Assembly: GCA_964370225.1 (NCBI GenBank) | Contig: CAYJII010000005.1 | Coordinates: 1-44,763, forward strand | Length of the DNA: 44,763 nucleotides | Reading direction: 5' to 3' | From: an uncultured Oscillospiraceae bacterium | GTDB taxonomy: Bacteria; Bacillota; Clostridia; Oscillospirales; Ruminococcaceae | Shown: positions 54-44,763 of the stretch, piece after piece | Layout of the letters: each line of letters starts with the position of its first letter | Numbering within the stretch: the stretch's first letter is position 1 | The notes under the pieces: generated by a model | What the model was told of the DNA's origin: nothing | Database searches by the model: none | What the model saw: the letters and a program-made list of their open reading frames with translations, nothing else | Position numbers and translations under genes: made by a program

Positions 54-656
54 TTGGGTGAAACTTTAAGCTTAATTGAAAAACTAAATAAAGAGAAGGA
101 AGAAATATTAATACAAATAAATGCATTGCAAACATATGCAATTTCAAGCGGTTCTGATAGTGATGTAGTAATACAAGCTTTTATGAATAGATTAACCGAA
201 ATCGAAGCATTAATCCAAGATGCTCTTTCAAGAGGAAATATGACTGAATATAATAGTGAAAACCAAGGCTGCACGCTTTACAACAAGCCAGTGTACTCGG
301 TAAATAATGATATGCAAAAGCGTAATAATCTCTCTCAATTTTCAGTTAGAATGAAGCAAACTCAGGCTATACTCCCACCTAAAGCAAACTACGATAAACA
401 TAATATTATCGCTGAAAATATCCCCCATAGCGCTAATTTAAGTGTAAGCAAAAATGAACGTGTACGTACTCTTGAAAACAAGCTAACTGCCCTTCTACGC
501 GTATTTGGTGACAAGATGTCACAGTTGTCAGAAAATAATGCTGATGAGATTACTCCATCGACTGATAACTTTACTACAACTCAGATGGTAGAAAATCAAA
601 TTTCAAGCCAAACTATGAAATCCGCTTTAGATAAGTACAAAGAAAAACAAATTTAA
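54..656 (+). CDS. hypothetical protein (serine/acidic-rich, predicted coiled-coil); reading frame is open to window position 3, so N-terminus may lie off-window
   Basis: ORF-track 200 aa ORF with a TTG start. I recognise no family motif. There is no in-frame stop between position 3 and 54. A strong hairpin plus T-run follows immediately downstream. Confidence 0.4.
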   Translation: MGETLSLIEKLNKEKEEILIQINALQTYAISSGSDSDVVIQAFMNRLTEIEALIQDALSRGNMTEYNSENQGCTLYNKPVYSVNNDMQKRNNLSQFSVRMKQTQAILPPKANYDKHNIIAENIPHSANLSVSKNERVRTLENKLTALLRVFGDKMSQLSENNADEITPSTDNFTTTQMVENQISSQTMKSALDKYKEKQI

Positions 657-4372: not shown

Positions 4373-5887
4373 TTACTTAATTAAAGAAATTCCATCCATT
4401 TCAGCTGGAATTTCTAATCCTAGTAGAGTCAGCATAGTTGGCGCTAAGTCAGCTAGTTTACCGCCTTCCACAAGTTCACAATCTTTCCCACACACGATAA
4501 ACGGTACAGGATTTGTTGTATGAGCTGTGAAAGCAGAACCATCATCTTCGTACATACGGTCAGCATTGCCATGATCAGCAGTAATCAGCGCAACGCCACC
4601 TTTTGCAAGGATAGCATCAACAGTTTTACCAACGCATGTATCCACAGCTTCAACTGCTGTTTTAGCAGCATCAAATACGCCTGTGTGTCCTACCATGTCG
4701 CAGTTAGCGTAGTTTAGAATGATAACATCGTATTTGTCCGAGTTGATTCTCTCAACTACTTCATCACACACTTCAAACGCACTCATTTCTGGTTTTAAGT
4801 CATAAGTTGCAACTTTTGGAGATGGAATAAGTGCTCTTTCTTCGCCTGGGAACACTTCCTCAACACCACCGTTAAAGAAGAATGTTACATGTGCATATTT
4901 TTCAGTTTCTGCAATTCTAAGTTGAGTTAAACCTTTGTTGCTGATGTATTCGCCAAAAGTATTAGCTAGTGACTGTGGTTTGAATGCTACTGTAACATTT
5001 GGCATAGTAGCATCATATTGAGTCAAACAAACAAATGTTAGGTTTAAGTTAGCGTTAGTACGAGCAAAACCATCAAAGTTTTCATCAACGAAAGTTCTAG
5101 TGATTTCGCGAGCTCTGTCAGGTCTAAAGTTAAAGAATACTACACTATCCCCTGTGCTAATATTTGAGTTATCAGCACAAACTATTGGTTTAACGAATTC
5201 ATCAGTAATATTTGCATCATATGAAGCTTGCATGGATGCAACAGCATCATCGCTTTTCACGCCTATTCCGTTTACCATTGCGTTGTAAGCTTCCTCAACT
5301 CTTTCCCAGCGATTATCTCTATCCATTGCATAGTATCTTCCGATAACAGTTGCAATTTCCCCAACACCAATGCTATCCATTTGTGCTTGAAGCTCCTCAA
5401 CAAAGCTTTTGCCTGATGATGGAGGCACATCGCGTCCATCCATAAAACAATGTACGAAAACTTTTGTTAAGCCAGCATCTTTTGCTAGTTTAAGTAGTCC
5501 ATAAAGATGTCCATTGTGACTATGTACGCCGCCATCGGACAATAATCCCATAAAATGTAGTGCAGTATCGTTTTTCTTACAATTATCAATCGCTTTAGCA
5601 AAAGCTTCGTTTGTAAAAAAGTCGCCATCTTTAATTGATTTGGTAATTCTTGTTAGCTCTTGATAAACAATTCTACCAGCACCGATATTAGTATGTCCAA
5701 CTTCACTATTACCCATTTGTCCTTCTGGCAAGCCAACTTCCATTCCAGAAGCGCCTATTAAAGTGTTAGGGCATTCGTTGAATATTTTATCCATATTAGG
5801 AGTACTAGCAGCTATAACAGCATTACCATACTCATTTGGATTATAACCATAACCATCTAAAATGATTAATGCAACAGGTTTTTTCAT
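4373..5887 (-). CDS. gpmI: 2,3-bisphosphoglycerate-independent phosphoglycerate mutase
   Basis: 504 aa. N-terminus MKKPVALIILDGYGY, and the metal-binding and phosphoserine regions typical of iPGM. Confidence 0.93.
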   Translation of the reverse strand: MKKPVALIILDGYGYNPNEYGNAVIAASTPNMDKIFNECPNTLIGASGMEVGLPEGQMGNSEVGHTNIGAGRIVYQELTRITKSIKDGDFFTNEAFAKAIDNCKKNDTALHFMGLLSDGGVHSHNGHLYGLLKLAKDAGLTKVFVHCFMDGRDVPPSSGKSFVEELQAQMDSIGVGEIATVIGRYYAMDRDNRWERVEEAYNAMVNGIGVKSDDAVASMQASYDANITDEFVKPIVCADNSNISTGDSVVFFNFRPDRAREITRTFVDENFDGFARTNANLNLTFVCLTQYDATMPNVTVAFKPQSLANTFGEYISNKGLTQLRIAETEKYAHVTFFFNGGVEEVFPGEERALIPSPKVATYDLKPEMSAFEVCDEVVERINSDKYDVIILNYANCDMVGHTGVFDAAKTAVEAVDTCVGKTVDAILAKGGVALITADHGNADRMYEDDGSAFTAHTTNPVPFIVCGKDCELVEGGKLADLAPTMLTLLGLEIPAEMDGISLIK

Positions 5888-5933
5888 CAGTATATTTTCC
5901 TTTCAAACGGTATAAAACCGAAATTACGTGTAA

Positions 5934-6701
5934 TTATTTTGAAGCCTCATCAACTAATACTGCAAAATCTTTTGCAACTAGTGAAGCACCGCCGATTAAA
6001 CCACCGTCAATGTTTTCTTTTGATAGTAGACCTGCACAGTTTTTAGCGTTCATAGAACCACCGTATTGGATAGTGATTGCATCAGCAGCAGCTTTATCGT
6101 ACATTTTTTCAATCACGCATCTAATCATAGCGCATACTTCTTCAGCTTGCTCGTCAGTAGCAGTAACACCAGTACCGATAGCCCAAACTGGTTCGTAAGC
6201 GATGATGATATTTTTTAGATCGTCTTTGCTAACGCCGTTAAGAGCAATTTTAGTTTGCATTGCTACAAGCTCATCTGTAATACCTAGTTCTCTATCATTT
6301 AGCATTTCGCCAACACATAAAATAACAGTTAAACCTGCTTCTAGTGCAGCTTTAGTTCTTTTGTTTACAGTTTCATCTGTTTCAGCAAAGTATTGTCTTC
6401 TTTCTGAGTGACCGATAATTACGTAGTTTACGCCCATTTCTTTTAGCATATCAGCAGCAATTTCGCCAGTGAAAGCACCTGATTTTTCAAAGTGGCAGTT
6501 TTGTGCGCCAACTTTAATATTTGTGCCTTGAGTTAAATCAAGAGCAGTTTCTAGATTAGTGTAAGGAGTACAGATAACAACATCACAGTCAGCGTTTTCT
6601 ACAACTGGGATAAGCTCGCTAATTAAAGTTTTAGCCTCTTCCCTATTTTTATTCATTTTCCAGTTACCAGCAATTACAGCTTTTCTTAGTGTTTTATTCA
6701 T
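5934..6701 (-). CDS. tpiA: triosephosphate isomerase
   Basis: AGNWKMN, IGHSERR and AYEPVWAIGTG motifs. Start is trimmed to the ATG at 6701 (MNKTLRKAVIAGNWKMN), which has GGAG 8 nt upstream. The track ORF starts 24 nt earlier without an RBS. Confidence 0.9.
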   Translation of the reverse strand: MNKTLRKAVIAGNWKMNKNREEAKTLISELIPVVENADCDVVICTPYTNLETALDLTQGTNIKVGAQNCHFEKSGAFTGEIAADMLKEMGVNYVIIGHSERRQYFAETDETVNKRTKAALEAGLTVILCVGEMLNDRELGITDELVAMQTKIALNGVSKDDLKNIIIAYEPVWAIGTGVTATDEQAEEVCAMIRCVIEKMYDKAAADAITIQYGGSMNAKNCAGLLSKENIDGGLIGGASLVAKDFAVLVDEASK

Positions 6702-20338: not shown

Positions 20339-22099
20339 TTGTTAAAGCTAGCGATATATCTAAAAAAATTTAAGAAAGAAACAATTATAGGACCCATTTT
20401 TAAGCTGTTGGAAGCTATTTTTGAGTTGAGCATACCCATAGTTATGGCGCTCATTATCGATGTTGGAATAAAAAATGGAGACTCAACCTACATAATTTTA
20501 ATGGGTGGTCTCATGATATTGCTTGGGCTAACAGGCTTAGGATTCGCTTTAATTTGTCAGTATTGTGCAGCAAAAGCTTCACAAGGATTTGGTACAGTTT
20601 TGCGGAATACTATCTTTGAGCATGTAGGCAAATTTTCATACGCTCAACTGGATAAGCTATCTACTTCCTCGCTCGTAACTAGGATTACTGGCGATGCAAA
20701 CCAGCTGCAACTAGCTGTTGCTATGCTAATACGCTTAGTGGTGCGAGCTCCATTTATCGCGATAGGTTCAATGATAATGGCTTTTGCTATAGACGCAAAG
20801 CTATCCATCATTTTCCTAATCTCCATGCCAATTATCGCCTTGCTTTTATATGTAATCATGTCAAAAAGCATTCCTTTTTATAAGGGGATACAAAAACTAA
20901 TTGACAGACTCACATTAATTACTAGAGAGAACTTAACTTCTGTGAGACTTATCCGCGCACTTAATGCGCAAGAACGTGAGACAAAACGTTTTGAGGAAGC
21001 AAATGATAATATATACCGCTCCACTACTTTTATCGGAAGGATATCATCCTTATTAAACCCGCTCACTACATTAGTTTTAAACGTCGCAATTATTGCAATC
21101 ATCTACTTTGGTGGTATCGAGGTAAACTCAGGCAATCTGACCCAAGGGGAAATTGTTGCGCTCATTAATTATATGACACAAATTTTACTTGCACTTATCG
21201 TAGTAGCTAATCTTGTAGTAATATTCACAAGAGCTGCTACTAGCGCTAGTAGAGTAAACGAAATTTTAGAAATAGTACCAGAAAAAACTACTTCTGATAC
21301 TGATGCTACTTTTAGCAATGATTATGATAATATTGTCGAGTTTAAGAATGTAAGTTTTTCTTACGACACTTCAGATAAAAATGCACTTAAAAACATAAAC
21401 TTCGCAATCAAAAAAGGGGAAACAATCGGGATTATCGGTGCAACAGGTTGCGGTAAAACTACCTTAATAAGTTTAATTCCTGCTTTTTATAACGCAACAA
21501 AAGGCGATGTGCTTATAAAAGGGATAAATGTAAAAAACATTTCCGCCTCCCAACTTAGCAAAATTGTCGGAGTAGTAGCTCAGCATAAATCCGCACTTTC
21601 AGGCACAATAAAAGATAATATCGTAATGAGTCGCCAAAATATCAGTGATGCTGATATACTAAAAGCTTTAGAAATTTCGCAAGCAAAAGAATATGTTCAA
21701 AAATTTGACGATGGACTAAGTCATAGAGTCGAACAAGGTGGTAAAAATTTATCGGGTGGCCAAATGCAAAGGCTTACAATAGCACGTGCTATCGTAACTA
21801 ATCCTGAAATTGTAATCTTAGATGACTCCTCAAGTGCACTTGACTACGCAACCGACTTAAAACTAAGGCGTGCACTTAAAGAAGAGCTTGACTGCGTTAG
21901 TATTGTAGTATCTCAAAGAGTTAATGCGATAAAGGATGCTGACAAAATTTTAGTTTTAGAAGAAGGCGAGCTTATCGATATGGGTAAACATGCACAGCTA
22001 TTTAATAGATGTGATGTTTATAACGAAATTTGCACATCACAATTAAGTGCAGATGAACTGGATAGCATTTTAAGTAAGGCAGGTGCAAACAATGAATAA
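20339..22099 (+). CDS. ABC exporter, fused permease/ATPase (heterodimer subunit A)
   Basis: Six-TM N-terminal half. Walker A GATGCGKTT, signature LSGGQMQR, Walker B ILDDSSSALD. TTG start; the in-frame upstream codon is TGA. Confidence 0.85.
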   Translation: MLKLAIYLKKFKKETIIGPIFKLLEAIFELSIPIVMALIIDVGIKNGDSTYIILMGGLMILLGLTGLGFALICQYCAAKASQGFGTVLRNTIFEHVGKFSYAQLDKLSTSSLVTRITGDANQLQLAVAMLIRLVVRAPFIAIGSMIMAFAIDAKLSIIFLISMPIIALLLYVIMSKSIPFYKGIQKLIDRLTLITRENLTSVRLIRALNAQERETKRFEEANDNIYRSTTFIGRISSLLNPLTTLVLNVAIIAIIYFGGIEVNSGNLTQGEIVALINYMTQILLALIVVANLVVIFTRAATSASRVNEILEIVPEKTTSDTDATFSNDYDNIVEFKNVSFSYDTSDKNALKNINFAIKKGETIGIIGATGCGKTTLISLIPAFYNATKGDVLIKGINVKNISASQLSKIVGVVAQHKSALSGTIKDNIVMSRQNISDADILKALEISQAKEYVQKFDDGLSHRVEQGGKNLSGGQMQRLTIARAIVTNPEIVILDDSSSALDYATDLKLRRALKEELDCVSIVVSQRVNAIKDADKILVLEEGELIDMGKHAQLFNRCDVYNEICTSQLSADELDSILSKAGANNE

Positions 22100-23825
22100 G
22101 ACCACTGCAATTAAGCTTTTAAAATTTATTAAGCCTCACAGACAATTTTTATTTATAGCGCTCATATGTTCATTAATAAGTGCGGGCTTTTCCCTATTCA
22201 TTCCTGTAGTTATTGGTCAAGCAGTTGACCATATCGTTGATATCAATAATGTTGATTTCGAGATGATTTTGCATTATATAAAAGTCTTAGCTATATTAAT
22301 TTTAGTAGGAGCAGTTTTTTCTTGGTTATTTACTTTTTCAATGAATATTGTGGCAGAAAAAACAGTTAAACTTCTACGCACTCGATGCTTTGAAAAGATT
22401 AATAGTTTAAGCATTGGCTATATAGATAAAAAATCACATGGCGATTTGATAGCAAGGGTTACAGTAGACATCGACCAAATCTCCACTGGGATATTACAAG
22501 GTTTTTCGAACCTCTTTAACGGTATCGTTACAATTGTAGTAACATTAATTTTTATGTTAACTGTCAACATACCAATAGCATTAGTTGTAGTTATTCTAAC
22601 TCCACTTTCTTTGTTTGTAGCTTCCTTTATAGCTAAAAGGACATTTAATACATTCAAGTTGCAATCACAAATTCGTGGAGAGATTACTGGATATTCACAA
22701 GAAATTTTTACAAACTTAAGACTCGTTAAGGCGTATAACTGCGAAGAGGCATCAAAAGAAAAGTATCAAGAGATTAATGATAGACTGTACACTAGTGGCG
22801 TTAAATCTCAGTTTTATTCTTCAATCACAAACCCATGCACCCGTTTTGTGAACGCTATTGTATATGCTGCAGTTGGAATTTGCGGTGCTATCATGTGTAT
22901 CTACTCGCCATTTTCAGTTGGACAGCTTTCTGCTTTTTTAGCATATGCAAATCAGTACACTAAACCTTTTAATGAAATTACAGGAGTATTGGCTGAACTC
23001 CAAAATGCGTTTGCAGGCGCGCAAAGAGTATTTGAGCTTTTAGAAGAAGATAAAATAGAGAGCGATAAACAACTGCGCCCTCTTAAATTTGAAAAGGGTA
23101 ATATTATATTTAAACAAGCTGCTTTCGCATATGATCCTAAAAGACCGCTGATTAAAAAACTAAACCTAATTGTAAAATCAGGACAAAGAGTCGCGATTGT
23201 AGGTCCTACCGGCTGTGGAAAAACTACTCTGATTAATCTATTAATGCGCTTTTATGACTTAAATTCGGGACAAATCGATATCGATGGACAGGACACAAGA
23301 TACACCACACGAGCTAGTCTGCGCACACAGTTTGGAACAGTTTTACAGGAGAGCGACTTATTTACCATGAGCATTAAAGACAATATCGCTTACGGTAAAC
23401 CAGACGCAGATATGGACAGCGTCATCGCAGCAGCTAAAAACGCGCATATCCACAATTTCATAATGCGATTACCAGATGGGTATGATACATTAATTAGCGA
23501 AAATTCGGATAATATTTCACAAGGACAAAAACAGCTTTTATGTATAGCAAGAACTATGTTGCTTGACCCACCTATGCTAATATTAGATGAAGCTACTAGC
23601 AATATAGATACTAGAACAGAAATGCAAATTCAAAAAGCATTTACAAAGATGATGGAAGGTAGAACTAGTTTCATAGTTGCGCATAGGCTATCTACTATCA
23701 AGGAAGCAGATATTATCCTTGTTATGAATGATGGCGATATAATAGAGCAAGGTAACCATGAAGATTTGATAGCTAAAAAAGGTTTTTACTGCGAATTATA
23801 TAATTCTCAGTTTGCAAAACAATAA
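22083..23825 (+). CDS. ABC exporter, fused permease/ATPase (heterodimer subunit B)
   Basis: Walker A GPTGCGKTT, signature ISQGQKQL, Walker B ILDEATSNID, H-loop. Overlaps the upstream partner by 17 nt. Confidence 0.85.
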   Translation: MQTMNKTTAIKLLKFIKPHRQFLFIALICSLISAGFSLFIPVVIGQAVDHIVDINNVDFEMILHYIKVLAILILVGAVFSWLFTFSMNIVAEKTVKLLRTRCFEKINSLSIGYIDKKSHGDLIARVTVDIDQISTGILQGFSNLFNGIVTIVVTLIFMLTVNIPIALVVVILTPLSLFVASFIAKRTFNTFKLQSQIRGEITGYSQEIFTNLRLVKAYNCEEASKEKYQEINDRLYTSGVKSQFYSSITNPCTRFVNAIVYAAVGICGAIMCIYSPFSVGQLSAFLAYANQYTKPFNEITGVLAELQNAFAGAQRVFELLEEDKIESDKQLRPLKFEKGNIIFKQAAFAYDPKRPLIKKLNLIVKSGQRVAIVGPTGCGKTTLINLLMRFYDLNSGQIDIDGQDTRYTTRASLRTQFGTVLQESDLFTMSIKDNIAYGKPDADMDSVIAAAKNAHIHNFIMRLPDGYDTLISENSDNISQGQKQLLCIARTMLLDPPMLILDEATSNIDTRTEMQIQKAFTKMMEGRTSFIVAHRLSTIKEADIILVMNDGDIIEQGNHEDLIAKKGFYCELYNSQFAKQ

Positions 23826-27351: not shown

Positions 27352-27675
27352 ATGAAACTGATTTATGCAATAGTTAGCGATGATGACAGTATGGTAGTAT
27401 CAAAACAATTAACAAAGAATGGCTTTTTTGCAACAAAACTTGCGAGTACTGGTGGATTTTTAATGTCCGGAAACACAACTTTTATGGTCTGCGTTGAAGA
27501 CGATAAAGTTGATGAAGTTATCGAAGTCATTAAAAACAACTCCAAGAAAAGAAAACAAATGGTTCCATCTTCAGCAACATATGGTCTGGGGTCATATACA
27601 CCATTCCCTGTTGAAGTAACTGTCGGCGGCGCTACAATTTTCGTTTCAAATGTAGAAAGATTTGAAAAAATTTAG
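27352..27675 (+). CDS. darA: cyclic-di-AMP receptor protein DarA/PstA (PII-like, DUF970/YaaQ)
   Basis: 107 aa with a PII-like fold. Conserved GFFATKLASTGGF T-loop region. Synteny with holB and yaaT as in Bacillus yaaQ. Confidence 0.85.
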   Translation: MKLIYAIVSDDDSMVVSKQLTKNGFFATKLASTGGFLMSGNTTFMVCVEDDKVDEVIEVIKNNSKKRKQMVPSSATYGLGSYTPFPVEVTVGGATIFVSNVERFEKI

Positions 27676-27678
27676 TTT

Positions 27679-28653
27679 ATGAAACAAAATCTAATTGGAA
27701 ACAAGACAGCAAAACTTTTGCTTAATAATTTAAAAAACACCGCTAATTTTTCTCATGCATATTTAATTCATGGCGAAGATGGTATCGGAAAAAAAACTTT
27801 TGCTGATATGCTCATTTTAAGCTTGTTGTGCGAAGATACTGATTCTAAGGACCCATGCTTTAACTGCGCATCGTGTAAGAAATTCTTAAGCGGTAGTCAT
27901 CCAGATGTATTTATTTTGCACGGCAAAGCCGTGCAAAATTCTATTCGTATAGACCAAATCAGGAATATACGAAAACTTTGTTATATAAAGCCTAATGAGT
28001 CACAAGTGAGCATTTATTTAATAACAAATGCTCATTGTATGACTATTGAAGCAATGAATGCTTTCTTAAAAATTTTAGAAGAACCACCGAAACATGCTGT
28101 TTTTATTTTAACAGCTTCTTCAAAGTATGCTTTGGCTCAAACTGTAATTTCGCGTTTAACATGTTTAGAGCTCTTCCCTATTTCAAATGATGAGATTAAA
28201 ACTTATCTTATAGAAAACTATCCCGATAAAAGTTTAGATGAAATAAACTTAGCAGTCGGTTTTTCTGACGGTGTTTTAGGTAAAGCTATAGCATTTGTCA
28301 CTGATGAAAGTTATGCTAATAGCGCAAATAAGGCGCTTGACATTTTGACCGCCTTAGCTAGTAAAAATGAGTATGAAGTTTTACGGCTATTAAACGAATT
28401 TGACAATGATAAAAAGAAATTTGTTATATGTCTTAAGATAATTAGTTATGAGCTGAGAAACATACTTCTATATAAAGAAAAAATATTGACGCAAGATGAT
28501 GTTAATATAAAACTTGCAAATACTATTACAAAAATGCAAACTACAAATTTACTTGATTTTGTGCAAGAGGCAATGAATATTTTTAACACGAATGCTAATT
28601 ATAATTTGACTGTTGCGCATATATGTGCTAAGATGCATATGATAGTGGATTGA
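27679..28653 (+). CDS. holB: DNA polymerase III subunit delta'
   Basis: AAA+ P-loop GEDGIGKKT and zinc module CFNCASCKKF. Length 324 aa. Confidence 0.88.
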   Translation: MKQNLIGNKTAKLLLNNLKNTANFSHAYLIHGEDGIGKKTFADMLILSLLCEDTDSKDPCFNCASCKKFLSGSHPDVFILHGKAVQNSIRIDQIRNIRKLCYIKPNESQVSIYLITNAHCMTIEAMNAFLKILEEPPKHAVFILTASSKYALAQTVISRLTCLELFPISNDEIKTYLIENYPDKSLDEINLAVGFSDGVLGKAIAFVTDESYANSANKALDILTALASKNEYEVLRLLNEFDNDKKKFVICLKIISYELRNILLYKEKILTQDDVNIKLANTITKMQTTNLLDFVQEAMNIFNTNANYNLTVAHICAKMHMIVD

Positions 28654-28690
28654 TTATATATACTTTTGTATCGTAAGAATGGAGATAATT

Positions 28691-29560
28691 ATGCCGGAAA
28701 TAATAGGAGTTAGATTTAAAAGTGTGGGCAAAGTTTATTATTTTGCTCCCAATAAAAAATCTTACAGTTTAGGCGACAAAGTCATCGTTGAGACTTCAAG
28801 AGGAGTTGAATGCGGTGAAGTTGTTATGGAAAATAAAGAAGTCGGCGAAGATAAAATTTCTTCTCCTTTAAAGCCAGTTATCAGGCTTGCTAGCAAAGAT
28901 GACTTACAGACTATAAAGCGTAACGAAGGCAAAGAAGATCACGCATTTAAAGTTTGTGCGGAAAAAATAATAGAACATAAACTTGATATGAAACTAGTAG
29001 ATGTGGAATACACTTTTGATTCCAACAAAATTTTATTTTACTTCACCGCTGACGGACGCATCGATTTTAGAGAGCTTGTAAAAGACTTGGCTTCCATGTT
29101 TAAAACAAGAATTGAGCTTAGACAAATTGGTGTGCGCGATGAATCAAAAATGCTTGGCGGTCTTGGTGTTTGTGGCAGACCATTTTGCTGTCACACCTTC
29201 CTAGGTGAATTCCAGCCAGTTTCAATAAAAATGGCCAAAGAGCAAGGTCTTTCGCTCAACCCTACTAAAATTTCAGGCACATGTGGCAGGCTTATGTGTT
29301 GTTTGAAGTATGAGCAAGAGGGCTATGAGGAATTGCTAAAAATTACACCTAAAAATGGGGCTTATGTTAATACTCCAGATGGTAAGGGAAATGTTATCGA
29401 TGTGAATTTATTAACAGGCGAGCTTAAAATTAAGCTTTCTGATAAACAAGACGCTGCGCCTCGCACATTTAATAAAAAAGACATCAAAGTGATAAAAGAT
29501 GGGCAAATAAGACTAAACAAACAAGAACTTGCCTCATTAAAAGAAATAGAAGATAAATAA
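28691..29560 (+). CDS. ricT: RicT/YaaT (PSP1 C-terminal domain) regulatory iron-sulfur protein
   Basis: PSP1 domain with the conserved GVCGRPFCCHTF and GTCGRLMCC cysteine motifs. Start moved to the ATG at 28691, which has GGAG 6 nt upstream. Confidence 0.85.
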   Translation: MPEIIGVRFKSVGKVYYFAPNKKSYSLGDKVIVETSRGVECGEVVMENKEVGEDKISSPLKPVIRLASKDDLQTIKRNEGKEDHAFKVCAEKIIEHKLDMKLVDVEYTFDSNKILFYFTADGRIDFRELVKDLASMFKTRIELRQIGVRDESKMLGGLGVCGRPFCCHTFLGEFQPVSIKMAKEQGLSLNPTKISGTCGRLMCCLKYEQEGYEELLKITPKNGAYVNTPDGKGNVIDVNLLTGELKIKLSDKQDAAPRTFNKKDIKVIKDGQIRLNKQELASLKEIEDK

Positions 29561-36011: not shown

Positions 36012-36623
36012 ATGATTGAGTGGTGGCAAGGCTTGAGCGCCTTGGGAAACATTTTTTTCACCATAGCTTTTTGCGCAACACTTATATTAGTTATTCAAAC
36101 GGTAATGTTGTTGTTTGGAATGGGATTTTCTGAAGCAGAAGTTGACTTTGAGGCAGACATGGAAGGTGTATCTTTATTTACTGTTAGAGGCTTAGTAGCA
36201 TTCTTCTCAGTAGGTGGTTGGACAGGACTTATACTTGTTAACTTAAATTTACACGGGATTGTAGCTATTCTTATTTCTATAGTAGCAGGCTACTTAGCAT
36301 TAATTGCAGTGGCGTATATTTTCAAATTTGCGATGAAGCTACAAGCGGACGCAACCATGGATATAAACTATGCTGTAGGAAGAACAGGCGAAGTGTATAT
36401 TCCAATACCAGCGCAAAAAACAGGGCATGGCAAAGTAAATTTGCTTTTGCACGACACAGTGGTAGAACTAGAGGCAGTGACCGAAGATGAGCAAATTATA
36501 AAAACAGGCCAGCAAATACGAGTTTTATCAGCACTAGACAATCAAACAGTTTTAGTAACATCAGCAAACACATTTATTAAAGACGATGAAACTAATCAAG
36601 ACGAAGAAGGAGCGATGTCATAA
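36012..36623 (+). CDS. NfeD-family membrane protein (YuaF/YqeZ-like, flotillin partner)
   Basis: N-terminal multi-TM segment plus a C-terminal OB-fold region. The stop overlaps the flotillin start (TAATG). Confidence 0.75.
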   Translation: MIEWWQGLSALGNIFFTIAFCATLILVIQTVMLLFGMGFSEAEVDFEADMEGVSLFTVRGLVAFFSVGGWTGLILVNLNLHGIVAILISIVAGYLALIAVAYIFKFAMKLQADATMDINYAVGRTGEVYIPIPAQKTGHGKVNLLLHDTVVELEAVTEDEQIIKTGQQIRVLSALDNQTVLVTSANTFIKDDETNQDEEGAMS

Positions 36624-38044
36624 TGGAAAATATGTTAATATTAATTTTAGTTACAGTAGTTGTTGTACTATTATTCTCAACACTTATCGTTATACTTACA
36701 AGGTACAGACGATGCCCATCAGATAAAATTTTGGTAGTTTACGGTAAAGTAGGCTCAAACAAAGACGGCTCACAAAGAAGTGCAAGATGTATACATGGTG
36801 GTGCGGCGTTCATCGTACCGGTTATACAATCGTATGAATATTTGGATTTGACTCCTATGTCAATTTCCGTTGACCTTAGAAATGCACTTTCTAAACAAAA
36901 TATCAGAATCGACGTTCCATCAAGATTTACAGTTGGTGTTTCAGTTGAACAAGGCGTTATGCAAAACGCTGCTGAGCGCTTACTAGGTTTAAAATTACCT
37001 GAAATTCAAGAGTTAGCAAAAGATATCATATTTGGTCAATTACGTCTAGTAATCGCAACAATGGATATCGAAGAAATTAATACTGACAGGGATAAGTTTT
37101 TATCAGCGGTTTCAAGCAATGTGGAAACTGAGCTTAAAAAAATCGGTTTAAGGCTAATCAACGTTAACGTAACTGACATTTCTGATGAATCTGGCTATAT
37201 CATCGCTTTAGGTAAAGAAGCAGCTGCAAAAGCTATCAACGACGCGAAAATTTCTGTTGCAGAAGCTGATCGCTCAGGTGCTATCGGTGAAGCGAACGCT
37301 CAAAGAGAGCAAAGAATTTCTGTATCACATGCAGACTCAGCAGCTATCCGAGGCGAAAATGAAGCTAGAGCGCAAATCGCTGAATCTAACGCTACATTGA
37401 GCGAAAAACAAGCTGAGGCACTAAAAAGAACTACTATCGCACAAAAAACTCAAGCTGCGAAAGCACTTGAAGAATCATACTCTGCAGAGCAACAAGCTGA
37501 ACAAGCAAGATATGCAAGAGATGAAGCATCACTTGAAGCTGACGTCATCGTAAAAACTGAAATTGACAAACGTCGTCTTGAGCTTGAAGCTGAGGCTGTA
37601 GCTGAACAAATTAGACGTAAAGCTAAAGGTGAAGCGGACGCAATTTACTTAAAAATGGAAGCGGAAGCTCGCGGTGTATCCGAAATGCTTACTAAACAAG
37701 CTCAAGGTTTATCACAAATTATTGCAGCTACTGGCGGTAACGCTGAAAATGCAATGAAACTGATGATTACAGATAAGCTTGAAACTCTAGTTGCTACGCA
37801 AGTAGAAGCAATCAAAAATATCAAAATTGACAAAGTTACAGTTTGGGATAGCGGTGCTAATGCTGATGGGAAAACACAAACAGCAAATTTCTTATCAGGC
37901 ATGATGAAATCACTTCCTCCACTAAACGAAGTTTTTGATATGGCTGGCATGGAGTTGCCTGAATTTTTAGGCAAAGATAAAGTTAGCGCAATTGCAAACC
38001 CAATAGTTGAACAAGCTGAAACTAGCGATACTACTACTGCATAA
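36623..38044 (+). CDS. floT: flotillin-like SPFH/band-7 protein (FloT/YuaG-like)
   Basis: N-terminal TM, SPFH domain, then a long Ala/Glu-rich heptad region (AEAxAEQ repeats) characteristic of flotillins. Confidence 0.85.
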   Translation: MENMLILILVTVVVVLLFSTLIVILTRYRRCPSDKILVVYGKVGSNKDGSQRSARCIHGGAAFIVPVIQSYEYLDLTPMSISVDLRNALSKQNIRIDVPSRFTVGVSVEQGVMQNAAERLLGLKLPEIQELAKDIIFGQLRLVIATMDIEEINTDRDKFLSAVSSNVETELKKIGLRLINVNVTDISDESGYIIALGKEAAAKAINDAKISVAEADRSGAIGEANAQREQRISVSHADSAAIRGENEARAQIAESNATLSEKQAEALKRTTIAQKTQAAKALEESYSAEQQAEQARYARDEASLEADVIVKTEIDKRRLELEAEAVAEQIRRKAKGEADAIYLKMEAEARGVSEMLTKQAQGLSQIIAATGGNAENAMKLMITDKLETLVATQVEAIKNIKIDKVTVWDSGANADGKTQTANFLSGMMKSLPPLNEVFDMAGMELPEFLGKDKVSAIANPIVEQAETSDTTTA

Positions 38045-38078
38045 TAACGAGAATGTTCCGATAAATCTCTTTGTATAG

Positions 38079-38107
38079 TTGACAATAATGCATATTTGGT
38101 ATATAAT
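38079..38107 (+). promoter_or_regulatory. consensus sigma-A promoter TTGACA-17-TATAAT driving SCIFF precursor
   Basis: Exact consensus hexamers at 38079-84 and 38102-07 with a 17-nt spacer, about 50 nt upstream of the peptide ATG. Confidence 0.65.
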
Positions 38108-38156
38108 AATACCGATAACATAGTAACAAAACTTTAATGTTAATGGAGATGAAATA

Positions 38157-38309
38157 ATGGAAAGAATTAAAACAATTAAAACTCGTGATCTACAAACAAG
38201 TGCTAAAACAGGCGGTTGTGGCGAATGCCAAACATCTTGCCAATCAGCATGCAAAACATCTTGCGGTGTAGCAAATCAACCTTGCGAAAACGAAAGCGAA
38301 AGTAAATAA
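38157..38309 (+). CDS. scfA: SCIFF (six-cysteines-in-forty-five) ranthipeptide precursor peptide, 50 aa; not in ORF track
   Basis: Translation MERIKTIKTRDLQTSAKTGGCGECQTSCQSACKTSCGVANQPCENESESK contains the hallmark GGCGECQTSCQSACKTSC core. RBS GGAG 9 nt upstream. Immediately upstream of an rSAM/SPASM gene. Confidence 0.88.
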   Translation: MERIKTIKTRDLQTSAKTGGCGECQTSCQSACKTSCGVANQPCENESESK

Positions 38310-38333
38310 TTAATATTACAGTAAGATTGACAC

Positions 38334-38368
38334 AAAATGCCGCCTTAACTATTAAGGCGGCATTTTTT
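38334..38368 (+). terminator. attenuator / partial terminator between precursor and maturase
   Basis: Perfect 14-bp stem aaaatgccgcctta/taaggcggcatttt with a 5-nt loop and a trailing T-run, placed between scfA and scfB. Confidence 0.6.
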
Positions 38369-38403
38369 ACAGCTATAATATAAATGAATATGAGGAGATA
38401 ATT

Positions 38404-39777
38404 TTGGTACACCAATATAAATTAAACGGATATAATCTAGTATTAGATTCAGTAAGTGGAGCAATTCATTCAGTCGATGATGTTGCTTACGATATGATAA
38501 AAGATTACAAAAATAAAGATAAAGCTACTCTTATTGGCGAGCTATTATCAAAATATAATGATAGATCTGATGTCACTAGCGATGAGCTTGAGGCATGCTT
38601 TTCTGATATAGAGTATTTAGTTGAAGAAAAACAGCTTTTTACTCCTGATACGTACGAAACACTAGCAAAGAACTACAAAAATAACTCTAATGTTATAAAA
38701 GCTCTCTGCTTCCATATTGCGCATACTTGCAACTTAAACTGCGAGTACTGTTTTGCTTCACAAGGAAATTATAAAGGCGATAGAGCTTTAATGAGTTTTG
38801 AAGTAGGAAAAAGAGCAATCGATTTTTTAATAGAAAATTCAGGTAGTAGAAGAAATCTTGAAGTCGACTTTTTCGGTGGCGAACCTTTGATGAACTGGCA
38901 AACTGTAAAAGACATTGTCGCATATGCAAGGAGCGTCGAAAAAGCACATAACAAAAATTTCCGCTTTACGCTAACTACAAATGGAATTTCTATCGATGAT
39001 GATGTAATCGAATTTTCTAACAAGGAAATGCACAATGTAGTATTATCTTTAGACGGCAGAAAAGAAGTCCATGACCACTTAAGAAAAGACTATAAAAATC
39101 GCGGTAGCTATGATGTCATCGTGCCTAAGTTTCAAGAATTTGTTGAAAAAAGAAATGGTAAGGGCTATTATATGAGAGGCACATTTACACATAATAATCC
39201 AGATTTTACAAATGATATCTTGCACATGCTTGACCTTGGATTTACTGAGCTTAGTATGGAACCTGTAGTAGCTAGCGAAGGCGATGCGTATGCTTTAACA
39301 AAAGAAGATTTACCGATATTGTTCGAACAATACGAATTATTAGCAAAAGAGATGATGAAACGGAAAAAAGAAGGAAAACCATTTTCTTTTTACCATTATA
39401 ACATAGATTTAACAAACGGTCCTTGCGTTTATAAAAGGATTACAGGTTGCGGTTCTGGGACTGAGTACATGGCAGTTACCCCTTGGGGCGAGCTATTTCC
39501 ATGTCATCAGTTTGTTGGTGATGAAAAATATAGTCTTGGAAATATTTTTGATGGCGTGAGCAATCTAGACGCACAGGATGAATTCAGATCATGTAATATC
39601 TACACAAAAGAGGAATGTGTTACTTGCTGGGCAAATTTATATTGCTCGGGCGGATGTCCTGCAAACGCTTTTCATGCGACAGGCGACATAAACGGTATAT
39701 ACGAATACGGTTGTGAGCTTTTTAAAAAGCGCATCGAGTGCGCTATTATGATGCAGGTAGCAAATCAAGAGGATTAA
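38404..39777 (+). CDS. scfB: SCIFF radical SAM maturase (rSAM with C-terminal SPASM domain)
   Basis: CNLNCEYC (CxxxCxxC) radical SAM motif and C-terminal SPASM cysteines (CVYKRITGCGSG...CHQF...CVTCWANLYCSGGCPANA). TTG start preceded by GAGGAG. N-terminus MVHQYKLNGYN matches the family. Confidence 0.88.
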   Translation: MVHQYKLNGYNLVLDSVSGAIHSVDDVAYDMIKDYKNKDKATLIGELLSKYNDRSDVTSDELEACFSDIEYLVEEKQLFTPDTYETLAKNYKNNSNVIKALCFHIAHTCNLNCEYCFASQGNYKGDRALMSFEVGKRAIDFLIENSGSRRNLEVDFFGGEPLMNWQTVKDIVAYARSVEKAHNKNFRFTLTTNGISIDDDVIEFSNKEMHNVVLSLDGRKEVHDHLRKDYKNRGSYDVIVPKFQEFVEKRNGKGYYMRGTFTHNNPDFTNDILHMLDLGFTELSMEPVVASEGDAYALTKEDLPILFEQYELLAKEMMKRKKEGKPFSFYHYNIDLTNGPCVYKRITGCGSGTEYMAVTPWGELFPCHQFVGDEKYSLGNIFDGVSNLDAQDEFRSCNIYTKEECVTCWANLYCSGGCPANAFHATGDINGIYEYGCELFKKRIECAIMMQVANQED

Positions 39778-39779
39778 TT

Positions 39780-41150
39780 ATGGATACGCCTATTTACGAT
39801 TTTATACGCAGATATTCAGCTGAAAATTTCACTAGGCTCCATATGCCGGGGCATAAAGGTGAAAATATTTTTGGGTGCGAAAATTTTGATATCACCGAAA
39901 TTGATGGTGCGGATAATTTATATTCACCTGAAGACGATGGTATCATTAAGAAAAGCGAGGCTAACGCTTCCAAACTATATGAAACAAAAGCGACTTTTTA
40001 TTCGACAGGCGGGTCTAGTCAGTGTATTTTTGCTATGCTTTATCTAGCTAAAATTGCTGCCAAAAAAAAACCATCTGAGGACGTTGTCCTTGTAGCACGA
40101 AATGCACATAAGACATTCGTGTCTGCTTGTGCTCTACTGGATATCAACCCTATGTGGATGTATCCAAGCGACGATGCAACTAGTGGTATTTGTAGCTGTG
40201 TGATAACAAAAACTGACCTTGAAACTAAACTAGCAAATATGAGTAATATGCCTATTGCAGTTTTTATTACTTCCCCCGATTATTTAGGCAATATCGCTGA
40301 CATCAAAGGCTTAAGTGAAGTTTGTGGCAGATACGATGTTCCTCTTCTTATAGACAATGCACATGGTGCATATCTTAAGTTTTTACAGAATGATATCCAC
40401 CCTATTACACTCGGAGCAAGTATGTCATGTGACTCAGCGCATAAGACTCTACCCGTGCTCACGGGAGGAGCTTATCTGCATATAAATAAAAACTCACCAG
40501 CCTCTTACAAAGATAGCGCTAAGGTTGCACTATCTTTGTTTGGCTCAACTTCCCCATCGTATTTAACTTTAACTTCACTGGACTTGTGTAATAAAATATT
40601 AAGTGAAGATTTTCCGAAAAACCTTAATAGGCATGTCAAATCCATAAATGCTCTTAAGGCTACACTTTACGATAATGATATCAAATATTTAGATGGAGAG
40701 CCTTTAAAATTAACGCTATTATGCTCTGAAATGTCCGTTTCCCCTCAAAAGATTGCGCATATTCTAAGGAAAAATAAGATTGAAATTGAATTTGCTGACA
40801 ATGATTTTTTAGTGTGTATGTTCACAGCACAAATTTCTGATGAGGAATTAGCTGATTTTGCATCGTTACTACTTAATATTTTCAGTAAGCGAGAAAATAT
40901 TGCGTCTACCCCATTGGAAAGTATCGCTATACCAACAGCGATACAAGCTATGAGTATACGCGAAGCTATATTCTCACCACAGCAAAAAATCAAGGCGGAT
41001 AATGCTGCTATTGGTAAGATTTGTGCCTCACTTGCTGTATCATGCCCCCCTGCCATTCCCATAGCAGTGAGTGGCGAGATTATTCAAAGCGAGCATATTA
41101 AACTATTTAATCATTATGATATAAATGAAATATTCGTTGTAAGCGAATGA
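39780..41150 (+). CDS. PLP-dependent Orn/Lys/Arg decarboxylase family protein (Bacillus YaaO/SpeA-like)
   Basis: SxHK PLP-lysine motif (SCDSAHKTLPVLTGG) and HMPGHKG N-terminal motif. Start set at ATG 39780 (MDTPIYDF), 2 nt after the scfB stop, with AAGAGGA upstream. The track ORF starts at 39738 in an overlapping stretch. Confidence 0.8.
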   Translation: MDTPIYDFIRRYSAENFTRLHMPGHKGENIFGCENFDITEIDGADNLYSPEDDGIIKKSEANASKLYETKATFYSTGGSSQCIFAMLYLAKIAAKKKPSEDVVLVARNAHKTFVSACALLDINPMWMYPSDDATSGICSCVITKTDLETKLANMSNMPIAVFITSPDYLGNIADIKGLSEVCGRYDVPLLIDNAHGAYLKFLQNDIHPITLGASMSCDSAHKTLPVLTGGAYLHINKNSPASYKDSAKVALSLFGSTSPSYLTLTSLDLCNKILSEDFPKNLNRHVKSINALKATLYDNDIKYLDGEPLKLTLLCSEMSVSPQKIAHILRKNKIEIEFADNDFLVCMFTAQISDEELADFASLLLNIFSKRENIASTPLESIAIPTAIQAMSIREAIFSPQQKIKADNAAIGKICASLAVSCPPAIPIAVSGEIIQSEHIKLFNHYDINEIFVVSE

Positions 41151-41151
41151 T

Positions 41152-41192
41152 AAAAAACAGTGTTTGTTGCGGTTCACAAGCACTGTTTTTTT
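41152..41192 (+). terminator. intrinsic terminator after decarboxylase
   Basis: 11-bp stem aacagtgtttg/caagcactgtt (one G-U pair) with a 10-nt loop, then T7. Confidence 0.65.
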
Positions 41193-41262: not shown

Positions 41263-41291
41263 TTGACTTATCATCATTAAAGATGTATAAT
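41263..41291 (+). promoter_or_regulatory. sigma-A promoter TTGACT-17-TATAAT for copA-copZ
   Basis: Hexamers at 41263-68 and 41286-91 with a 17-nt spacer. RBS AAGGAGGTG before the TTG start. Confidence 0.6.
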
Positions 41292-43749: not shown

Positions 43750-43791
43750 AAAAAACCAGGAATGGCGATATTGCCATTCCTGGTTTTTTTT
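43750..43791. terminator. bidirectional intrinsic terminator (copZ / GGDEF gene)
   Basis: Perfect 11-bp stem ccaggaatggc/gccattcctgg, flanked by A6 and T8. Confidence 0.8.
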
Positions 43792-44763
43792 AATTTCCGT
43801 TTTTATGCATGCTTTTTTGATCGCTTAACAAGAAAATAGAAATCATTTTAACAGCATACAGGATGCTATTAATTTCCTTCTCATTCCATACACGAGTTCT
43901 AGTGCAATCGTCTAAGCCTAAAAATAGTTTCACATAATCCTTTTCTCGTATCTGAACATGTAAAAATGATTTTATGCCTTGATCATTCATGAGATCATAT
44001 GCACCATCAGCCTTTAAGAGTCTCAAGTCATTGCTGTAAAAAATGCCCTTATCATCAGAATTTGCAAAAAAATCAAACAGTATATCTGCAGTAAGCCCCT
44101 GCAAATTTTCAATCTCTGGGACAATTCCATTAGCACACCACTCATAAGTATTGTCATAAGTTTTTCCATTATCATGTGTCTCGAATATATAGCATCTATC
44201 TGCATTTGCTCGTTTACATATAAATTTCATTACAGCATTAAGCGAGGAGTGTATTTCCCTTGTTTCATACATTAAATCAAACACAGTGGATACAAGTTCT
44301 GTATCAAAATACGAGTTTGCAATTCTACTAGCGTTTTCAAGCGTAGTCCTATTTTTCATAGTACCATCGTAAAGCTCATCAGTATAAAATGTATAACAGT
44401 CTTTCCCACGAAGCTTTGACTGATATAATGCTTTATCTGCTGCTTTGTACAATTCCTCATACGTTTTACCGTCTTTGGGGTAGCATGAAATTCCGATGCT
44501 TCCAGAAATTTTGTAGTCATTATATTCACCTGAGTAAGTGTTTTGAAAAGCTTTTGCTATAATTTTAGCTTTTTGCTCCACTACATTTTCATTTTGAACA
44601 TTCTTAAGTAGGACAATAAATTCATCCCCACCAATTCTACCTATAATATCAGCATTTCTAAAACAGTTACGCAAATTAGCAGCTACTTCACTTAATACCA
44701 TATCGCCAAAATGATGCCCTAGATTATCATTTATCGCTTTAAAATTATCGATATCTATGATGT
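43790..44763 (-). CDS. GGDEF-domain diguanylate cyclase with C-terminal uncharacterised domain; 5' end off-window
   Basis: RIGGDEF motif. The frame stays open upstream of the listed Met to the window edge and reads IIDIDNFKAINDNLGHHFGDMVL (canonical GGDEF A-site/I-site region). About 190 aa of unknown function follow the cyclase domain. Confidence 0.8.
   Translation of the reverse strand, partial: IIDIDNFKAINDNLGHHFGDMVLSEVAANLRNCFRNADIIGRIGGDEFIVLLKNVQNENVVEQKAKIIAKAFQNTYSGEYNDYKISGSIGISCYPKDGKTYEELYKAADKALYQSKLRGKDCYTFYTDELYDGTMKNRTTLENASRIANSYFDTELVSTVFDLMYETREIHSSLNAVMKFICKRANADRCYIFETHDNGKTYDNTYEWCANGIVPEIENLQGLTADILFDFFANSDDKGIFYSNDLRLLKADGAYDLMNDQGIKSFLHVQIREKDYVKLFLGLDDCTRTRVWNEKEINSILYAVKMISIFLLSDQKSMHKNGN

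Follow-up and report, generated by a model that had tools for sequence, protein, structure and literature searches.

A SCIFF precursor-maturase pair and a putatively co-translated pyridoxal phosphate enzyme gene in an uncultured Oscillospiraceae bacterium

SCIFF systems consist of a small cysteine-rich precursor peptide and a radical S-adenosylmethionine (SAM) maturase with a SPASM domain, and the closest described counterparts of the locus reported here are CteA/CteB (thermocellin) of Clostridium thermocellum and Tte1186a/Tte1186 of Caldanaerobacter subterraneus, the latter reportedly the first SCIFF system to be studied in vitro, with a maturase described as three-cluster (PMC10177961). Nearly all Clostridia are reported to have SCIFF, and no species more than one (bioRxiv 10.1101/2025.02.12.637840). 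Here we analyse a 44,763-nt stretch of DNA from an uncultured Oscillospiraceae bacterium (GenBank assembly GCA_964370225.1, contig CAYJII010000005.1, positions 1 to 44,763; hereafter the window), in which a SCIFF precursor gene, scfA, is followed by a maturase gene, scfB, and by a pyridoxal phosphate (PLP)-dependent gene of the Orn/Lys/Arg decarboxylase family (Table 1). The scfA-scfB pair is a genuine, textbook copy of a well-described family, both genes of which would be named by standard NCBI models, and the locus as a whole is very probably a SCIFF ranthipeptide operon of the canonical type with one additional, co-translated gene. Its only somewhat novel element is the conserved coupling of scfB to the PLP enzyme gene, which we regard as a lead and not yet as a result.

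The 153-nt scfA open reading frame (ORF) encodes the peptide MERIKTIKTRDLQTSAKTGGCGECQTSCQSACKTSCGVANQPCENESESK, made up of a leader (M1-G20) ending in GG (residues 19-20), a core (C21-E44, CGECQTSCQSACKTSCGVANQPCE) and an acidic tail, NESESK. Its six cysteines, at positions 21, 24, 28, 32, 36 and 43, are arranged as CxxCxxxCxxxCxxxCx6C after the GG motif. Family membership was judged by curated NCBIfam and Pfam thresholds (TIGR03973, 50 bits; PF13165, 27; TIGR03974, 425; PF01276, 27), and the peptide reached 82 bits with TIGR03973 ('six-cysteine ranthipeptide SCIFF') and 82.1 bits with PF13165, the match running from residue 3 to residue 45 and taking in almost all of the SCIFF model. A called gene with the identical 50-aa product already exists on an NCBI contig, and all three operon products are present as single-member NCBI-derived entries. 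Three minus-strand ORFs in this region (37702-38121, 37967-38254 and 38203-38415) are antisense to conserved genes and signals and were rejected as spurious.

Relatives were collected in two scans. A genome collection searched with ScfB as the query returned 33 loci, all close relatives of the window ScfB; the nearest were metagenome-assembled genomes (MAGs) of Clostridia (ScfB 62-73% identical; labels among them include Acutalibacteraceae, Oscillospiraceae, Oscillibacter and 'Eubacteriales'), followed by the Bacillus cereus group (about 61%) and Lachnospiraceae (53-56%). Metagenome contigs were searched with a decarboxylase alignment, and the best 80 of at least 581 matches were kept, with enzymes 44-51% identical to that of the window; many of these loci are repeat samplings of one species, and lineages were counted after clustering the decarboxylase-family enzymes at 70% identity. 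Across more than 80 of these loci the window ScfA is 64-89% identical to the scfA products that adjoin scfB. In the 47 distinct relatives that were aligned (of 48) the cysteine spacing is identical and the core is invariant or nearly so, and GGAG stands at the same place in most of the relatives' scfA upstream regions.

Across a 94-nt spacer, and on the same strand as scfA, lies scfB. Its 457-aa product reached 747.8 bits with TIGR03974 ('thioether cross-link-forming SCIFF peptide maturase') and, over residues 1-451, 564 bits with CteB (PDB 5WGG/5WHY), in an alignment whose beginning at residue 1 backs the TTG start; the nearest ScfB relatives in the genome collection are 73% identical. The radical SAM motif CxxxCxxC (C109/C113/C116, nt 38728-38751; PF04055, 54.6 bits) aligns with C104/C108/C111 of CteB. 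The SPASM domain occupies residues 349-437 (nt 39448-39714) and matched TIGR04085 at 63.7 bits (cut-off 27), the Pfam SPASM model taken alone giving 21.4 bits, just under its cut-off of 21.5. Within it the ligands of auxiliary cluster 1 (AC1), C349/C367/C418, align to CteB C344/C362/C413, and those of auxiliary cluster 2 (AC2), C405/C408/C414/C437, to C400/C403/C409/C432. Compared with the ligands given for CteB (PMC10177961), ten of ten Fe-S cysteines are thus kept, three of them radical SAM and seven auxiliary. The N-terminal stretch of about 100 residues is covered by the TIGR03974 and CteB alignments from residues 1-2 and, by homology to the CteB structure, would form a leader-binding domain of the RiPP (peptide that is ribosomally synthesized and modified post-translationally) recognition element (RRE) type. 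The window pair therefore resembles CteA/CteB in gene order, in all three sets of cluster cysteines and, putatively, in leader recognition; set beside Tte1186a/Tte1186 by literature description, it shares the TIGR03973/TIGR03974 families and the three-cluster architecture.

Other radical SAM/SPASM enzymes come next to mind. PapB, which modifies PapA (freyrasin), and QhpD are homologous to ScfB and also form thioethers at non-alpha carbons, but their substrates are CX3D repeats and an enzyme subunit, respectively, and the window peptide has no CX3D repeats. If the small ORF had arisen by chance, or the radical SAM protein were an orphan or a different maturase (a sactisynthase, PapB, QhpD or an anaerobic sulfatase maturase), the matches of ScfB to the exception model NF040492 'not_ScfB' for orphan look-alikes (570 bits), to PapB (276 bits) and to QhpD (249 bits) would be the evidence to cite; each of these nevertheless falls below its own cut-off (855, 340 and 453 bits), as do the matches to all other radical SAM peptide maturases, whereas TIGR03974 is exceeded by more than 300 bits. 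Given this margin and the conservation of ScfA beside scfB, we rejected that explanation, the probability of which we consider negligible. A sequence-only reading made earlier of this DNA had picked out a SCIFF-signature peptide of 50 residues with a good ribosome-binding site and, downstream, a CxxxCxxC radical SAM protein with a C-terminal SPASM domain as its maturase. Both identifications hold: the peptide, run against TIGR03973, passed the threshold, and all seven auxiliary-cluster cysteines that such a maturase should carry align with CteB ligands.

The same reading had also called the scfA promoter a textbook one, and here too we agree. The sigma-70 (SigA)-type promoter upstream of scfA ends its -10 hexamer 49 nt before the ATG, and TTGACA-17-TATAAT was the sole perfect match on both strands of the window, where shuffled sequences lead one to expect 0.02. 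Of 77 distinct relatives, 66 have a promoter scoring at least 10/12 in the 200 nt before scfA (shuffle mean about 8.2), mostly with a 17-nt spacer and typically 36-110 nt before the ATG, so that promoter activity is predicted from the sequence of the window and of its relatives alike.

Beginning 24 nt past the scfA stop codon is an intrinsic-terminator-type hairpin with a perfect 15-bp stem (AAAATGCCGCCTTAA, 38334-38348, pairing with TTAAGGCGGCATTTT, 38352-38366), a CTA loop and a T6 tract. A 111-nt segment around it (38300-38410) folded at -25.2 kcal/mol (z = -4.1), and 0 of 200 shuffles were equally stable. A simple terminator scan did not report this hairpin, which folding, an inverted-repeat search and a custom scan all revealed. 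Every locus with both genes (81/81) has in its scfA-scfB spacer a hairpin of -13 kcal/mol or stronger with a T-run after it, the stem sequences varying between clades; the 64 distinct spacers have a median length of 72 nt, and the distance from hairpin to scfB start has a median of 22 nt and is at most 45 nt in 54. Such a universal hairpin offers a simple rule by which these small genes can be found and delimited. Many of the Oscillospirales-type hairpins share the stem core TGCCGCC...GGCGGCA with differing loops and flanks, and those of Bacillus have the stem CCGCCCA...TGGGCGG instead; the stem may be constrained beyond its structure.

The most plausible reading of the hairpin is that it terminates leakily and/or stabilises the 3' end of a short scfA transcript, and would in this way set the ratio of peptide to enzyme. 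We favour leakiness because the space between hairpin and scfB is too short for a second promoter and a ribosome-binding site, so that scfB, and here the PLP enzyme gene, would have to be expressed mostly by read-through. The sequence-only reading had called this element an attenuator; the hairpin and its T-run are real, but regulated attenuation was not borne out, since neither the minimum-free-energy nor the centroid fold contained an alternative structure competing with the hairpin, and a regulated attenuator was accordingly dropped as a candidate. A search of the whole window with Rfam at gathering thresholds found no RNA family and hence no known riboswitch or leader RNA before scfA or scfB.

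Precursor genes separated by a hairpin from their modification genes are known from nisA-nisB and sboA-albA, in which this layout yields an excess of precursor mRNA. The likeness to the window lies in the strong promoter, the very short precursor gene, the stem-loop and the read-through-dependent enzyme genes, the difference being that for SCIFF the layout is known here from its conservation across the 81 loci alone. By analogy, the near-perfect housekeeping-type promoter would drive a short, abundant scfA message, most transcripts being ended or stabilised at the strong hairpin just past the scfA stop codon, and the fraction that reads through would carry scfB and the PLP enzyme gene. Far more precursor than enzyme would thus be made. 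The N-terminal recognition domain of ScfB would then bind the ScfA leader, and ScfB, with SAM and its radical SAM [4Fe-4S] cluster, would cleave SAM reductively and abstract a hydrogen atom from a side-chain carbon of the core; with the two auxiliary [4Fe-4S] clusters handling the thiol and the second electron, a cysteine sulfur would be joined to the radical carbon, giving a non-alpha thioether as in CteA/CteB. The chemistry of this scheme is that described for CteB and Tte1186 (PMC8326336, PMC10177961), and by the same analogy with CteA the window ScfA would be a ranthipeptide, with its thioether at a beta or gamma carbon. What we observe is which genes are present, that every cofactor ligand is in place, how the promoter and hairpin read and how far they are conserved, and the arrangement that couples scfB to the decarboxylase-family gene; the transcript ratio, the cross-link's chemistry and position and whatever part the PLP enzyme may play are what we infer.

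Two details of the locus tell against this scheme. The first is a perfect TATAAT (38374-38379) that follows the hairpin, 24 nt before the TTG start of scfB, and that may act as a weak scfB promoter in the window locus. Taken further, it would allow the hairpin to be a complete terminator, with scfB and the PLP enzyme gene transcribed from a promoter of their own; however, the best -35 element matches at only 3/6 positions and lies inside the hairpin, the site is absent from the promoter-scan output, and in the 54 relatives with at most 45 nt between hairpin and scfB there is no room for both a promoter and a ribosome-binding site. We consider complete termination improbable, and partial read-through remains our preferred account of scfB expression. 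The second concerns the cross-link itself. The acceptor in CteA is disputed, two reports giving Cys32-Thr37 and a third Cys32-Thr34 (at C-gamma), and the cross-link of Tte1186a is reported as Cys32-Thr37, all as related in PMC8326336. Position 37 of the window ScfA (38265-38267) is Gly, which makes a Cys32-Thr37 link impossible in this peptide and sets it apart from both CteA and Tte1186a as so reported.

This difference is shared by most of the family sampled here. Among the 47 aligned peptides position 37 is Gly in 41 and Thr in 6, Thr37 being confined to Lachnospiraceae-type peptides (compare loci L020-L026), whereas Thr34 is invariant and the CQTSCQSACKTSC block as a whole shows little or no variation. 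The window core CGECQTSCQSACKTSC, with Cys32 and Thr34, matches those Lachnospiraceae peptides, which bear the Cys32, Thr34 and Thr37 positions reported for CteA, the CteA sequence itself lying outside this comparison; the tail of the window ScfA is longer than that of CteA, and acidic. The variation at position 37 against a constant Thr34 suggests that the acceptor in general is Thr34 or some other conserved residue, and natural variation of this kind bears directly on the question of which residue receives the Cys32 cross-link.

The third gene begins only 2 nt past the TAA stop of scfB (39775-39777), with a ribosome-binding site inside the last scfB codons. Since the alignment with orthologues begins at residue 1, the start was placed at the ATG at 39780 and not at the GTG at 39738. 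To judge from this spacing, the PLP enzyme is translationally coupled to scfB in the window, as the sequence-only reading had proposed, and the coupling turns out to be more conserved than could have been seen from one sequence. A terminator-like hairpin of 16 pairs with a T-run closes the unit, and the next gene, copA, has its own 11/12 promoter (41263-41291).

The 456-aa product matched PF01276 at 124.9 bits. Its PLP lysine is K222 (nt 40443-40445) in the motif S219-A-H-K222, which aligns with SFHK of 2X3L, and H221, K222 and D192-x-A-H-G are invariant in 12 orthologues. None of the NCBIfam models for characterised decarboxylases (LdcC, CadA, AdiA-type arginine decarboxylase, MfnA and others) was matched at its cut-off, the best being LdcC at 36.7 bits against a required 968. 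The nearest solved relative is 2X3L, an uncharacterised, YaaO-type family member from Staphylococcus aureus, with which the enzyme shares PF01276, the S-x-H-K motif and a size near 450 aa, both lacking the wing domain found in large enterobacterial enzymes; the match amounts to only 96 bits, however, and the scfB-linked proteins form a group of their own. In some of the same loci there is in fact another paralogue, closer to 2X3L and sharing about 30% identity with the scfB-linked enzyme. This second gene lies directly upstream of scfA on the same strand (L013:3236-4678, L042:1548-2957 and L057:1774-3183), carries the motif VVQS(A/F)HKTLP and is 40% identical between L013 and L042; in L042 and L057 scfAB is thus flanked by two decarboxylase-family paralogues.

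Gene order across the relatives separates a constant core from variable surroundings. In the genome collection scfA precedes scfB in 29 of 33 loci, namely all those that have upstream sequence and are not orphans, and it does so in the 52 metagenome loci that reach far enough; the exceptions (L003, L027-L029 and, among the metagenome loci, L103 with 127 nt upstream of scfB) are orphans or lie at contig edges. Loci L027, L028 and L029, from three large plasmids of Bacillus toyonensis GXUN31-2, hold ScfB-like genes (at about 5001-6334, 56% identical) with no scfA upstream and a tblastn match split into two overlapping pieces, and may represent an orphan ScfB-related maturase type or disrupted copies. 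In L032 (4662-4918) two scfA-like frames stand in tandem before one scfB, in a complete-genome MAG all of whose ORFs are short; it looks like a frameshift-rich long-read assembly, in which a tandem duplication is indistinguishable from an artefact.

A decarboxylase-family gene follows scfB in 11 of the 14 closest genome loci. In the metagenome set scfB (62-75% identical) immediately precedes the enzyme gene wherever the upstream sequence is long enough; in the 14 loci lacking a scorable scfB match of more than 100 residues the enzyme gene starts at most 330 nt from the contig end. Counted by lineage, scfB is directly upstream in 26 of 26 informative cases, and the enzymes concerned diverge to 39-54% identity, pairwise values reaching down to 39%. 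The scfB stop and the enzyme start overlap or lie within 5 nt of each other (-20 to +5 nt) in 80 of 89 loci. The flanking genes otherwise differ between loci, and no other neighbour of the three genes in the window recurs beside scfAB in the 33 genome loci; unrelated flanks surround the three-gene arrangement in Anaerotignum propionicum (GCA_900129165.1; Lachnospirales, Anaerotignaceae) and in a MAG labelled Eubacteriaceae, and the families that bear it fall in two NCBI orders. The ScfB of A. propionicum is 70% identical to that of the window, compared with 53-56% for the ScfBs of Lachnospiraceae without the enzyme, from which we conclude that the linked systems form their own ScfB sequence group. 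Two pairs of neighbouring genes were considered as further members of the unit and rejected: NfeD/flotillin, homologues of which adjoin scfAB in none of the sampled loci, and copA/copZ, a copA homologue occurring only on the opposite strand, about 1.7 kb past the decarboxylase gene, in one repeatedly sampled metagenome lineage and in 0 of the 33 genome loci.

What the conserved adjacency means for the enzyme can be read in more than one way, and two features of the data count against making it an integral part of the SCIFF system. The loci of Bacillus and Lachnospiraceae, together with two close relatives (L003 and L005), consist of scfAB with no PLP gene, so that the enzyme is not needed for SCIFF maturation in general; and the metagenome loci, having been chosen as the 80 most similar to the window enzyme, are a biased sample of the linkage. 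We think it fairly probable that the enzyme is a housekeeping amino-acid decarboxylase of the YaaO/SpeA type which merely shares the scfB transcript, much as scfB in Lachnospiraceae is followed by genes that read as secDF and recJ (from inspection of their translations, with no family search run). Its nearest solved relative is of the YaaO type, the source databases name the orthologues 'amino acid decarboxylase' or 'arginine decarboxylase', and SCIFF genes sit among housekeeping genes in other lineages too. Genomic position adds a further hint. The darA (cyclic di-AMP receptor), holB and ricT (PSP1) genes, which in Bacillus subtilis are preceded by yaaO, a member of the Orn/Lys/Arg decarboxylase family, and tmk, stand together in the window without a preceding yaaO-tmk, and the window's only decarboxylase-family gene is found 10 kb away behind scfB; that gene may thus be a relocated yaaO homologue. 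A shared transcript would, on the other hand, hardly explain why coupling through overlapping signals, rarely kept for passengers, persists across 26 lineages whilst the other neighbours change, or why no cut-off for a characterised decarboxylase was reached.

These same observations speak for a dedicated third SCIFF component in this clade, acting on ScfA after its modification, whole or as a fragment, or supplying an amine: translational coupling in nearly all loci, scfB invariably upstream despite the divergence of the enzymes, flanks unrelated between loci, families of two orders, a separate ScfB group and, in the three loci described above, a second paralogue just upstream of scfA. We nevertheless hold such a role to be possible but doubtful. 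Fold-type-I amino-acid decarboxylases require a free alpha-amino acid as substrate and cannot act on a residue inside a peptide, the enzyme gene is missing from the loci listed above, and conserved adjacency is evidence of co-expression and not of shared chemistry. Nor was a paper found that ties SCIFF or ranthipeptides to a PLP enzyme: a literature search combining either term with decarboxylase or pyridoxal gave no title or abstract making the link, although subscription papers lay mostly outside that search and an earlier mention is possible. The enzyme may form an amine while being expressed together with scfAB, or its substrate may be a product derived from SCIFF.

The furthest-reaching version of such a role, that SCIFF is a three-gene unit in Acutalibacteraceae, Oscillospiraceae, Anaerotignum and the Eubacteriaceae-labelled MAG, with the PLP enzyme working on a SCIFF-derived molecule, seems to us rather unlikely. 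Its substrate could, speculatively, be a proteolytically released, thioether-bridged di-amino acid resembling cystathionine or lanthionine, and if it were true SCIFF would give rise to a small metabolite or cofactor, on the pattern of pyrroloquinoline quinone (PQQ) or mycofactocin, rather than serve as a secreted peptide signal. Taken alone the window locus is one more Clostridia SCIFF operon. The coupling of a PLP gene to scfB in many lineages, including the culturable A. propionicum DSM 1682, may by comparison be a useful lead for SCIFF research.

On that role the locus gives some indirect evidence. The sequence-only reading had described a complete RiPP cassette; precursor and maturase are present, but no protease, exporter or immunity gene stands beside scfA-scfB, and in the relatives nothing beyond scfA-scfB is conserved except, within this clade, the decarboxylase gene. 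The window's two ABC exporters (20339-23825) were considered as partners and rejected, as they lie about 14 kb upstream and have no peptidase domain. The same reading held the family to be described and its biological role unknown, of which the first part stands, whereas a quorum-sensing role has already been proposed for SCIFF in solventogenic clostridia (Chen et al. 2020, cited in PMC8326336). The extremely conserved core, the distribution of one per species and the location among housekeeping genes speak against these peptides being antibiotics, a point also made by others (PMC8326336; bioRxiv 10.1101/2025.02.12.637840).

Table 1. Features of the scfA-scfB-decarboxylase locus and other genes of the window.
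Feature	Position	Strand	Basis or remark
scfA promoter, SigA/sigma-70 type: TTGACA (38079-38084), 17-nt spacer, TATAAT (38102-38107)	38079-38107	+	12/12 promoter-scan match
scfA ribosome-binding site, GGAG	38145-38148	+	8 nt 5' of ATG; by sequence reading
scfA, 50-aa SCIFF precursor	38157-38309	+	153-nt ORF
Intrinsic-terminator-type hairpin, scfA-scfB spacer	38334-38369	+	inverted repeat and folding
scfB ribosome-binding site, GAGGAG	38392-38397	+	6 nt before TTG; by sequence reading
scfB, 457-aa radical SAM/SPASM maturase, TTG start	38404-39777	+	TIGR03974, CteB alignment
Decarboxylase-family gene ribosome-binding site, AGAGGA	39768-39773	+	within last scfB codons; by sequence reading
PLP-dependent Orn/Lys/Arg-decarboxylase-family gene, 456 aa	39780-41150	+	PF01276
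Terminator-like hairpin, 16 pairs, with T-run, closing the scfA-scfB-decarboxylase unit	41152-41191	+	terminator scan
pth			
gpmI-tpi-pgk			
rimP-nusA-ylxR-infB-rbfA-nrnA-truB-ribF operon			
2-oxoacid:ferredoxin oxidoreductase			
darA-holB-ricT	27352-29560		
rpsO-pnp			
NfeD-flotillin	36012-38044		
copA-copZ			

The remainder of the window consists of housekeeping genes, in agreement with the sequence-only reading, and a SCIFF locus among such genes is to be expected because the family is near-universal in Clostridia. The G+C content is even, at 33-39%; no signs of mobile elements were seen around the scf locus, and a tRNA search of the window found none. Immediately upstream of scfA, an NfeD-like membrane protein (no Pfam match) and a flotillin/SPFH protein are encoded by reading frames that touch at 36623; the end of the pair and the scfA promoter are 35 nt apart, no terminator was detected in that interval, and some read-through into scfA is possible. 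At the far end of the window a 303-aa ORF (43790-44701, minus strand), starting 62 nt from the window end, matches GGDEF over residues 1-100 but only from profile position 58, so that the N-terminus of the domain looks cut by the ORF start, and its last 200 or so residues have no Pfam match; the start may have been misplaced, the frame may be shifted, or the GGDEF protein may be degenerate. At the opposite end, a 200-aa ORF (54-656, plus strand) matches no Pfam family at E <= 1e-5.

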